In this document: positions 22 to 1,317 of the stretch, piece after piece
How the letters are laid out: the number at the start of each line of letters is the position of its first letter
Position numbering within the stretch: the stretch's first letter is position 1
DNA from: a virus
Virus record (IMG/VR): IMGVR_UViG_3300044716_000883
Span: 32,001-96,000 of that record
Strand: one strand, 5' to 3'
Length of the DNA: 64,000 nucleotides
The notes under the pieces: model-generated
Told to the model about the DNA's origin: nothing
Seen by the model: the letters and a program-made list of their open reading frames with translations, nothing else
Databases searched by the model: none
Translations under genes and position numbers: made by a program

Positions 22-92
22 TGCCCTTTAGTATAACGGTAGTACGACAGTTTTTGGTACTGTTTGTTGAGGTTCGAATCCTTGAGGGGCAA
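22..92 (+). tRNA. tRNA-Gln(UUG)
   Basis: Acceptor TGCCCTT/AGGGGCA; anticodon arm ACAGT-TTTTGGT-ACTGT; GGTTCGAATCC T-arm; CCA not encoded. Confidence 0.92.
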
Positions 93-123
93 CATTAGAT
101 TATTATCTTAAAAATAAAAAATT

Positions 124-351
124 ATGTTTTGGACAATTTACGCAATAAGCGTTATTTATTGCTTTTATCAATTAGTAAAACGCTACAGAGCAACTGACTT
201 AAGAGGTGGTGGATTAGATTCAGCCCCAGGATTAGATGGAGTTATGGTACTTTTCCTAGCACCAGTATTAGCTGTAGTTGACGTTACTTTAACTTGGATA
301 AGAATTTATAAAGAAGCTGAAGAAGCAAGACGAAGAAACAATACACTGTAG
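124..351 (+). CDS. small membrane protein, hypothetical
   Basis: 75 aa ORF with two hydrophobic segments; A-rich leader. Confidence 0.65.
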   Translation: MFWTIYAISVIYCFYQLVKRYRATDLRGGGLDSAPGLDGVMVLFLAPVLAVVDVTLTWIRIYKEAEEARRRNNTL

Positions 352-505
352 GGTGGCGGAATAGAGGTAGCTCCTCGTGGCAGACGTGCCCTCTCGTCTA
401 GGGGGTGCTGATCAGAGACAGATGTAAGATATGGGTTGACCACAAAGCCGGCTTATTTGTCTTACATTGAATCGCAGCGTGCTGGTTCAACCCCAGCCCC
501 TACAG
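347..505 (+). ncRNA. oversized tRNA-like RNA (class II scaffold, GUC at anticodon position, D-loop and variable-arm insertions)
   Basis: Acceptor TGTAGGG/CCCTACA+G; TGGCGGAA...GGCAGACGTG D-arm; CCCTC-TCGTCTA-GGGGG arm; 75-nt paired variable arm; GCTGG-TTCAACC-CCAGC T-arm. Confidence 0.75.
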
Positions 506-510
506 CAAAT

Positions 511-596
511 GCCTTGGTGGTGAAATAGGTAGACACGCAGGACTTAAAATCCTGTTCGCAGCAATGCGAGTGCGAGTTCGATTCTCGCCTGAGGCA
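511..596 (+). tRNA. tRNA-Leu(UAA)
   Basis: GCCTTGG/CTGAGGC acceptor; CAGGA-CTTAAAA-TCCTG anticodon arm; long variable arm TCGCA-GCAA-TGCGA; A73. Confidence 0.95.
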
Positions 597-611
597 CAAA
601 TAATTATATAC

Positions 612-944
612 ATGGCATGTCACTGCTTATACTTGAAAAATTCAGATGAATTTTACTCATTATTAAAGAGTAGAGATTCAGATATGATCATGAAGATGGT
701 CAAATGTGTACTTAGTGCAGCTAAACGAAATAAAAAAACCATCGATATATTTGATATCACGTTCAAAAATACAGATGGTTTGATTTTTACTATTGATAAA
801 TCGCAGTATACCGAATTATTAAGCAACTGCCTAAACGATCTAATCGCACTTGAAGAATACGAATTGTGCGCTGAGATCAAGAAATTTATTGATAAGAAAT
901 CAAAAAGTAAAAAATCAGGGGATGTCCAGGTATTTGATCTATAA
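612..944 (+). CDS. hypothetical protein with UVR-like C-terminal motif
   Basis: Start moved to ATG 612 because the ORF-track start lies inside tRNA-Leu; LEEYELCAEIKK resembles a UvrB/C helix pair; last codons overlap the tmRNA. Confidence 0.65.
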   Translation: MACHCLYLKNSDEFYSLLKSRDSDMIMKMVKCVLSAAKRNKKTIDIFDITFKNTDGLIFTIDKSQYTELLSNCLNDLIALEEYELCAEIKKFIDKKSKSKKSGDVQVFDL

Positions 945-1283
945 TCTGGAGGTAGTACCACACGCGGACAAAGCATGAATGTCCTTAAACCCTTGCGAAA
1001 CAATAACTGTAGAATTATCTACTATGACCTTCGACGACATGATGTCTTTCGTAGGTGCGAACGAGTACGCATTAGCGGCTTAATTAGCGTCGGGTGTAAC
1101 ATCCTAGGAACAGAAGTTACAAGCAGTTTACCCAAACGTTAAATGGGTTGGTGGAACGCTATACTAACCATATGGCCCCAATTCTTTTGGAACAGTAGTA
1201 AGATTAAACTGTTAAACTAAGCGTGTGAGACGTTGGTATTATTGTTCGTTATAGAGACACCGGTTCGACTCCGGTCATCTCCA
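918..1283 (+). ncRNA. ssrA: tmRNA; tag ORF 1009-1083 VELSTMTFDDMMSFVGANEYALAA*
   Basis: Acceptor GGGGATG/CATCTCC with G3.U70 and A73; ACCGG-TTCGACT-CCGGT T-arm; ATAACT upstream of resume codon; tag ends YALAA-stop. Confidence 0.93.
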
Positions 1284-1289
1284 CAACTT

Positions 1290-1317
1290 AAAGCAACCGT
1301 AACTGGTTGCTTTTTTT
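1290..1317 (+). terminator. intrinsic terminator after tmRNA
   Basis: AAAGCAACC-GTAACT-GGTTGCTTT followed by T run. Confidence 0.8.

Follow-up and report, generated by a model that had tools for sequence, protein, structure and literature searches.

A conserved tRNA-Asp-like RNA with a long structured arm in phages and Bacteroidota, predicted to act outside translation

Charged tRNAs are not always used in translation: the staphylococcal non-proteinogenic tRNA-Gly is used in cell-wall synthesis, being charged by the normal synthetase and kept from the ribosome. For bacterial tRNA-Asp, the strong determinants of charging are G73, G34, U35, C36 and C38, with G2–C71 as a minor one, and a G1–C72 pair is strictly conserved, which helps to position the 3′ end in the E. 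coli aspartyl-tRNA synthetase (AspRS) (PMC9976931). The pair U1–A72 promotes amidation by bacterial GatCAB, and in tRNA-Asp this amidation is blocked when the D loop has extra nucleotides (PMC1635274). Here, we describe a 159-nucleotide (nt) element at positions 347–505 of the window, i.e., the whole 64,000-nt stretch of viral DNA that was analysed, bases 32001–96000 of the IMG/VR record IMGVR_UViG_3300044716_000883. The source virus record is 179 kb long with direct terminal repeats, 33% G+C and baseplate-wedge genes. Comparison of homologues indicates that the element, which is tRNA-Asp-like with a 75-nt extra arm, is a genuine, strongly conserved RNA gene and a phage copy of a family native to Bacteroidota. 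We propose, with a probability of about 0.5, that the RNA undergoes tRNA-like maturation, receives its amino acid from AspRS and stays away from the ribosome. The parts of the element are as follows.

347–353, plus strand: 5′ strand of the acceptor stem, UGUAGGG, pairing with 498–504; all 7 pairs covary (73 sequences).
354–358, plus strand: U8 and G9 (354–355), invariant in the phage alignment, and the 5′ strand of the D stem, GCG (356–358).
359–384, plus strand: D loop of class II type, with G18 G19 at 379–380, the conserved core AAAUUGGCAGA and an inserted hairpin at 364–376.
385–388, plus strand: 3′ strand of the D stem, CGU, pairing with 356–358, and G26.
389–405, plus strand: anticodon-like stem-loop, with a stem of 5 base pairs (bp), 389–393/401–405, and the loop UCGUCUA, 394–400.
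406–480, plus strand: variable arm of 75 nt with three stacked helices, 407–410/475–478, 415–416/472–473 and 422–431/458–467 (10 bp).
433–443, plus strand: apical motif GGGUUGACCAC, on which the phage set was selected.
445–454, plus strand: perfect 10-nt palindrome AAGCCGGCUU, 3′ of the apical motif.
481–497, plus strand: T arm, GCUGG/loop UUCAACC/CCAGC, whose 5-bp stem covaries.
498–506, plus strand: 3′ strand of the acceptor stem, CCCUACA (498–504), the discriminator G505 and an encoded C74 (506); CCA is not encoded.

The 7-bp acceptor stem, 5-bp T stem, U8, G18 G19, the standard T loop and G73–C74 at the gene end are the marks of a class II tRNA. In the window copy, the acceptor end comprises U347–A504 (U1–A72), G348–C503 (G2–C71), G505 (G73) and C506 (C74), and the loop has C33 (C395), GUC at 34–36, U37 (U399) and A38 (A400). 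The original prediction had described intact acceptor, D and T arms, a D-loop hairpin, a 75-nt arm with a 10-bp stem and a palindrome, and a loop TCGTCTA with GUC that lacks U33 and a purine 37, and all of these were found where it had placed them. Its 17-nt D-loop insert stands as regards the hairpin at 364–376, whereas the length comes to about 15 nt relative to members without the insert. This hairpin (GAGG/UAGCU/CCUC, 13 nt) has a 4-bp stem and a 5-nt loop, with a folding energy of −5.1 kcal/mol. The D stem has 3 bp, 356–358 with 385–387, including G10·U25, and its pairs 10–25 and 11–24 covary; pair 4 of the anticodon-like stem covaries as well (AU, UA, UG, CG), as do all of the consensus helices 4–7 of the variable arm. 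The element is missed by ARAGORN at its defaults and by Rfam RF00005 even at E ≤ 10, and it matches none of the other Rfam models, including that of transfer-messenger RNA (tmRNA).

Exact-word scans recovered a near-identical relative, L002, and homologues of the neighbouring open reading frame (ORF) led to diverged copies of the RNA. A scan of viral sequences for the pattern GGGTTGACCAC followed by the T loop gave matches in at least 120 viral contigs, and the window was aligned with 72 distinct full-length copies (141–176 nt) drawn from such contigs. The search for compensatory changes in aligned homologues, suggested along with the original prediction, succeeded: RNAalifold draws 36 pairs from the 73 phage sequences, and 29 of them show such changes. 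Paired cells amount to 97.8%, vs. 76% in shuffles, none of which reaches the observed value (0/500), and 39–53% with slid partners; the covariation score is 0.605, vs. at most 0.123 in slid controls. The supported helices are the acceptor, D, anticodon-like and T stems and the three helices of the long arm. The more-than-chance status of the structure follows from this comparative evidence rather than from single-sequence folding, which is uninformative (z = −1.2). In the T arm, G52, G53, U54, U55, C56 and A58 are invariant, with the caveat that the search pattern itself demanded GGTTCRA. L002 differs from the window RNA at 3 of 159 positions (413, 452 and 456), all of them unpaired or changed from G–C to G·U, C452 to U retaining a G·U pair within the palindrome; over the neighbouring 227-nt ORF, the two differ at about 17 positions. 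A BLAST comparison of two family members with GenBank phages gave no match, and no cultured phage relative is named. One further viral contig (L138:2983-3109) carries GGGGTTGACCAC in a stretch of 127 nt whose acceptor and T arm are tRNA-like and whose body is different; it was excluded from the alignment.

The family extends to cellular genomes. A stricter pattern scan covered one genome per prokaryote species, and the matches listed all belong to Bacteroidota: Chitinophaga, Pedobacter, Spirosoma, Cytophagales, Saprospiraceae, Cyclobacteriaceae, Aquirufa and others. A covariance model built from the phage copies alone (R1) gives the window, part of its seed, 135.3 bits over model positions 1–155. 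The Bacteroidota chromosomal copies, which lie outside the seed, score 74–138 bits over the full length, and the next-best matches in the same genomes score 43–49 bits over 82–84 nt; Rfam gave no match at the bacterial loci. Most bacterial copies found by the model alone carry GGGUUGACCAC with single-base variants. Of 151 evenly sampled Bacteroidota genomes, 15 were found to carry the RNA, at one locus each, and three of these have two copies. Short tandem second copies (109–140 nt) with a simple arm that lacks GGGUUGACCAC were seen at L179:5197-5310, L278:1201-1310 and 1423-1531, and L276:1201-1340; the loop of both L278 tandem copies reads UUC rather than GUC. In the short bacterial copies of 109–114 nt with simple arms, the abnormal loop is retained. 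As to neighbours, 16 loci have a same-strand gene for a TrmB-type tRNA (m7G46) methyltransferase about 150 nt downstream of the RNA (L147:3391-4098), and a gene for an AMP-binding enzyme takes that position in 21 other loci.

Column counts over 43 bacterial and 59 phage copies (102 genes) show what has been kept and what has been lost. U1 and G2, near-invariant family-wide, are present together with C71 and A72 in 43/43 bacterial and 58/59 phage copies, giving U1–A72 in 101/102. In the loop, U35 and C36 are found in all copies of both groups (43/43 and 59/59), G34 in 41/43 bacterial and 59/59 phage copies, and C38 in 43/43 bacterial and 52/59 phage copies, six phage copies having A38. G73 is universal (43/43 and 59/59), and G73 with an encoded C74 stands at the end of all 102 genes; bases +2 to +4 are variable, and CCA is encoded in only nine of the 102. 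The host tRNA-Asn genes have the same gene end, as well as U1–A72 and G73. On the other hand, position 37 is a pyrimidine in 100/102 copies (U in 41 and C in 2 bacterial copies; U in 57 and A in 2 phage copies), and U33 is kept in 40/43 bacterial copies, vs. 24/59 phage copies, 33 of the 59 having C33. The claim that the RNA is not a normal decoder is thus upheld by the pyrimidine 37 of the family as a whole and by the C33 of the window and 33 phage copies. Of the Asp identity features that had been named, GUC and G73 are under selection, whereas G10·U25 is no family feature, G10 being present in 41/59 phage copies and in only 4/43 bacterial ones. By these counts, the family combines the AspRS identity set with a class II body, its first pair switched to U1–A72.

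The proposed mechanism starts from the gene cluster. The RNA sits in a tRNA/tmRNA cluster without an internal terminator, from which it would be released by RNase P and by the enzymes that process tRNA 3′ ends, with CCA added by the host. AspRS would then read G34–U35–C36, C38 (A38 in the window copy), G73 and G2–C71; aspartylation is the most likely outcome because the invariant marks are those read by bacterial AspRS. No second, dedicated AspRS was found, a single aspS being present in all 22 genomes tested. The pyrimidine 37, the loss of U33 in this phage clade and the structured arm of 60–90 nt would make the RNA unfit for ordinary decoding, so that its action is expected off the ribosome, as a charged carrier, or as a cofactor or signal in an amino-acid-responsive circuit. 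Since a canonical tRNA-Asp(GUC) co-occurs in 10/72 phage loci, the RNA is not its replacement. In cells, the circuit may be controlled by a dedicated, co-inherited orthologue of AsnC; the phage copy would escape host control because the phage lacks the regulator and co-expresses the RNA with its tRNAs. We regard as tentative, and less probable than the proposal itself, a fuller version in which the family is a dedicated non-decoding aminoacyl carrier with its own AsnC regulator, Asp-charged by the housekeeping AspRS and amidated or otherwise used off the ribosome, which Bacteroidota phages captured several times to override host amino-acid control, and whose palindromic inserts might self-pair.

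Several points weigh against charging by AspRS and action off the ribosome. First, the case is drawn, for all members, from sequence comparison, and the phyletic comparisons ignore kinship among the sampled genomes. Second, the identity set is imperfect: the window copy carries A38 rather than C38 and hence four of the five strong determinants, whereas the family consensus has all five; U1–A72 replaces the G1–C72 of bacterial tRNA-Asp; and G10 is unconserved in the bacterial copies. Third, the long arm, G73 and G2–C71 could attract seryl-tRNA synthetase (SerRS) instead, and some protein other than AspRS could be the reader of the invariant loop.

Among the matches listed, 87 of 120 bacterial loci have a divergent gene of about 156 amino acids (aa), encoding an AsnC-type helix-turn-helix and a ligand domain, at a median of 179 nt upstream of the RNA. 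An orthologue with 50–79% identity lies beside the RNA in 5/5 genomes that have the RNA, whereas no match at E ≤ 1e-25 was found in the 12 genomes tested that lack it; in five RNA-lacking genomes inspected closely (four among the 12), the best matches are paralogues with 25–32% identity. These paralogues adjoin genes for FKBP isomerases, a phosphatase or a radical-SAM gene, and running the model with filters off found no copy of the RNA near them. The RNA and the regulator are thus, in these 5 and 12 genomes, apparently co-present or co-absent. The best solved relative of the regulator is E. coli AsnC (2CG4; 116 bits, full length, about 41% identity), the next-best Lrp-family structure scoring 72 bits. 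The divergent AsnC-type neighbour is a feature of the chromosomal copies only and is missing in the phage. In 34 of the 120 listed loci, the AsnC-type gene is followed by sufB(-sufC) (e.g., sufB at L149:2771-4216), and in Pedobacter it adjoins feoB (L179:2048-4156), an iron/Fe–S neighbourhood that an asparagine-related role does not predict.

An alternative that we consider possible, though doubtful, builds on this regulator and makes the RNA a scaffold for asparagine synthesis: AspRS loads Asp, GatCAB recognises U1–A72 and amidates the product to Asn, and Asn is released or passed on, the AsnC orthologue switching the RNA on at low Asn and an AT-rich, Asn-hungry phage bringing its own copy. 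In E. coli, L-asparagine prevents the activation of asnA by AsnC, which has few other targets (PMC4482635). The regulator is a true AsnC relative. The GatCAB-promoting pair is present in 43/43 bacterial and 58/59 phage copies, including the window. GatB was found in 15/15 genomes with the RNA, vs. 126/151 overall, but this association is weak (p about 0.06) and all such profiles are confounded by phylogeny. The genomes with the RNA also have glutaminyl-tRNA synthetase (GlnRS) in 13/15 cases and asparaginyl-tRNA synthetase (AsnRS) in 15/15, so GatCAB has no obligatory canonical job there; GlnRS was found in 4/15 RNA-lacking genomes having GatB. In two genomes with the RNA, asnS, the AsnRS gene, lies 6–7 kb from it (G001:C17 and G009:C2), and elsewhere it is distant or on another contig. 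AsnA was not found in any of the 15 genomes with the RNA, being rare overall (4/151), and Asn makes up 6.9% of the residues in the ORFs of the phage; no AsnC domain or asparagine synthase was found in the 179-kb phage genome.

However, other results speak against asparagine synthesis on the RNA. An AsnB-type synthetase is present in 13/15 genomes with the RNA and in 11/15 without it, and the idea that the RNA substitutes for a missing asparagine synthetase was rejected on this comparison. Likewise, in the four AsnA-bearing Bacteroidota genomes, no asnA lies beside an AsnC-type gene within 3 kb, which leaves unsupported the idea that the RNA occupies the place of asnA beside asnC within this phylum. 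Host tRNA-Asn already has U1–A72 and G73, so the need for a special substrate is not obvious; each Asn would cost two ATP-dependent steps; and there is one AspRS per genome in the 22 genomes tested. The enlarged D loop, which is of class II size in the window and bears the 13-nt hairpin of the phage clade in addition, may hinder GatCAB, for which extra D-loop nucleotides are an anti-determinant (PMC1635274). With the tests mixed, we treat the conversion of RNA-bound Asp to Asn by GatCAB as a possibility that is unproven.

The D-loop hairpin, together with a second hairpin after GGGUUGACCAC, would be a gain of the phage clade, both inserts being palindromic. In a quick tree from 142 columns, which is indicative only as it comes from a short alignment, the window falls in a phage-only clade of 41 sequences with a support of 0.94, and two more phage clades are present, one of them nested among the bacterial copies. 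The D-loop segment has a median of 15 nt in the clade of the window, vs. 5–6 nt in other clades. The insert is found in 46/73 phage copies and is rare in bacterial ones, in which the segment measures 5–7 nt in most tree clades. Because the D loop is long in this phage-only clade and short in the others, the hairpin appears to be an addition by one phage lineage and not a family trait. A perfect palindrome of at least 6 nt occurs in 30 of the 46 D-loop inserts (shuffle mean 8.4, maximum 17) and, in 21 different versions, in the segment after GGGUUGACCAC of 65/73 phage copies (shuffle mean 17, maximum 29). In both phage-specific inserts, the palindrome is thus usually perfect, and its 4-nt centre is self-complementary (GUAC, CUAG, UAUA, CCGG, UGCA, GCGC). 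Intermolecular self-pairing and an origin by fold-back duplication are both possibilities. Pairing of the anticodon-loop GUCU with GAGAC in the arm, which can form in the window, is unconserved in other subfamilies and was dropped as a candidate.

A less probable alternative, which we consider unlikely, is that the RNA stays uncharged and acts as a mimic or sponge that titrates a reader of the tRNA-Asp anticodon loop (AspRS, tRNA-guanine transglycosylase or a colicin E5-type nuclease), having a regulatory role in cells and serving the phage as a decoy. Defence against anticodon nucleases is a known role of phage tRNA clusters, and U33–G34–U35 is the recognition triplet of tRNA-guanine transglycosylase. 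The loop is indeed invariant at 34–36 and 38 while decoding features are lost, and the triplet is retained in 40/43 bacterial copies; however, U33 is lost in 35/59 phage copies, which argues against the transglycosylase, and a role of the loop only leaves the invariant G73–C74 and U1–A72 unexplained. A host regulator of AsnC type that is co-inherited with a chromosomal copy is unexpected for an anti-nuclease decoy, and the suggestion of such a decoy in the original prediction fails to explain it.

It is improbable that the RNA is instead charged with serine, SerRS recognising the long arm, G73 and G2–C71 as in tRNA-Ser or tRNA-Sec and the Ser-RNA being converted or used elsewhere. The class II body, the conserved G73 and G2–C71 and the regular 4-bp helix at the base of the arm would suit SerRS, and the next-best host matches of R1, at 82–84 nt, are class II tRNAs judging by length alone. 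SerRS is not known to read the anticodon, however, and this reading leaves the invariant G34–U35–C36–C38 unexplained; moreover, the RNA is linked to no converting enzyme, SelA-like or otherwise.

That the element is an ordinary tRNA, whether a working tRNA-Asp, an insert-bearing precursor or a decayed pseudo-tRNA, is very improbable in spite of its GUC anticodon and perfect tRNA frame, since the abnormal positions 33 and 37 lie in the loop, outside the arm and any removable insert, the bacterial copies of 109–114 nt share that loop, the arm itself is conserved and covaries, a canonical tRNA-Asp is found alongside the RNA in phages, decay is excluded by conservation across phages and at least four bacterial orders as well as by covariation, and the 74-nt-intron model that ARAGORN can be forced to give (relaxed thresholds, introns allowed) is a poor tRNA-Gln with a bad D arm and anticodon stem, nothing being called at defaults with introns. 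Among the four options offered by the original prediction, a tRNA-scaffolded noncoding RNA comes nearest to what we propose, i.e., a tRNA-like RNA charged by AspRS and kept off the ribosome, whereas an excised-insert precursor is unlikely.

In the window, the element belongs to a cluster in the order tRNA-Glu, tRNA-Thr, tRNA-Ser(UGA), tRNA-Gln, a 75-aa ORF, the element, tRNA-Leu(UAA) and tmRNA. The first three (ARAGORN, Rfam) lie just upstream of the window, before tRNA-Gln, and the neighbours within it are as follows.

22–93, plus strand: tRNA-Gln(UUG), found by ARAGORN and Rfam, a member of the phage tRNA cluster.
124–350, plus strand: hydrophobic ORF of 75 aa, whose TAG stop (348–350) overlaps the 5′ end of the RNA element.
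511–597, plus strand: tRNA-Leu(UAA), found by ARAGORN and Rfam, 5 nt 3′ of the RNA element.
918–1313, plus strand: phage tmRNA (918–1286), found by ARAGORN and Rfam, and an intrinsic terminator (1290–1313), the sole one in the cluster.

Similar surroundings recur in related phages. Among the 72 phage loci, tRNAs lie near the RNA in 54, tmRNA in 18 and, as noted, canonical tRNA-Asp in 10, tRNA-Leu(UAA) being the commonest neighbour within 300 nt (16 loci). The 75-aa ORF has homologues with 46–100% identity in 22 viral contigs, in several of which the tRNA-like RNA comes straight after it; many of the homologues stand directly 5′ of a tRNA or of the tRNA-like RNA. A PHROG comparison of this ORF gave no match. 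The window tmRNA encodes the tag peptide ANEYALAA, and a 10-bp intrinsic terminator comes after it.

The family is not in Rfam 15, and no description of it was found in the literature searched. A candidate, 'DNAVirus_1850', that occurs 27 times in IMG/VR with one overlap with a tRNA-Asp call (PMC10690425) may be the present family. If the proposal is true, a tRNA-derived RNA has escaped annotation in Chitinophagales, Cytophagales, Sphingobacteriales and Saprospirales and in many of their phages, and an RNA that keeps its charging marks, gives up decoding and has a private regulator of an amino-acid type would be a new case of tRNA use outside translation. It would also tie an AsnC regulator to an RNA target in a concrete way that can be tested, and would add a new class to the auxiliary genes of phages. 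As the gene is missed by tRNA finders and Rfam, thousands of loci would gain an annotation from a model like R1, which might also help to mark the hosts of uncultured Bacteroidota phages.

Compared with known systems, the family has relatives in form but differs from each of them. The T4 species 1 and 2 (rnaC and rnaD) are stable RNAs of about 120–140 nt inside a phage tRNA cluster; homology was rejected, since R1 gives rnaC 15.6 bits, a level that ordinary T4 tRNAs also reach, and finds no match in rnaD. The 3′ 92 nt of rnaC (L145:2910-3001) align to R1 as a generic tRNA-like fold of acceptor and T arm and are non-homologous. Allo-tRNAs (PMC5389517), tmRNA and YrlA are, like the present family, non-standard tRNA-shaped RNAs from genome mining, some of them phage-borne, but allo-tRNAs have 8/4 or 9/3 acceptor/T branches and usable anticodon loops (PMC5389517), and tmRNA and YrlA are without an anticodon arm.

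With the bacterial class II tRNAs (Leu, Ser and Tyr; RF00005), the family shares the 7-bp acceptor, 5-bp T stem, U8, 3-bp D stem, the AAAUUGGCAGA-type loop with G18 G19, the standard T loop, an arm between the anticodon and T stems, a place in a tRNA cluster and the gene end of host tRNA genes; however, its arm has 60–90 nt and three helices, vs. 13–21 nt, and the family has a pyrimidine at position 37 and can do without U33. With tRNA-Asp(GUC), it shares G34, U35, C36, C38, G73 and G2–C71 (PMC9976931), whereas it has U1–A72 for G1–C72, a class II body and U37 for a purine. With the tRNA-Asn of synthesis by AspRS and GatCAB (PMC1635274), it shares U1–A72 and G73, GatB in all genomes with the RNA and the link to an AsnC orthologue; unlike tRNA-Asn, it has the anticodon GUC rather than GUU and an enlarged D loop and would be unfit for translation, and its amidation is a possibility.

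The staphylococcal tRNA-Gly has a normal size and anticodon loop, and no aminoacyl-transferase is linked to the present RNA; nevertheless, the family would be the same kind of thing if, as predicted, these tRNA-derived RNAs are charged by a normal synthetase and act away from the ribosome.

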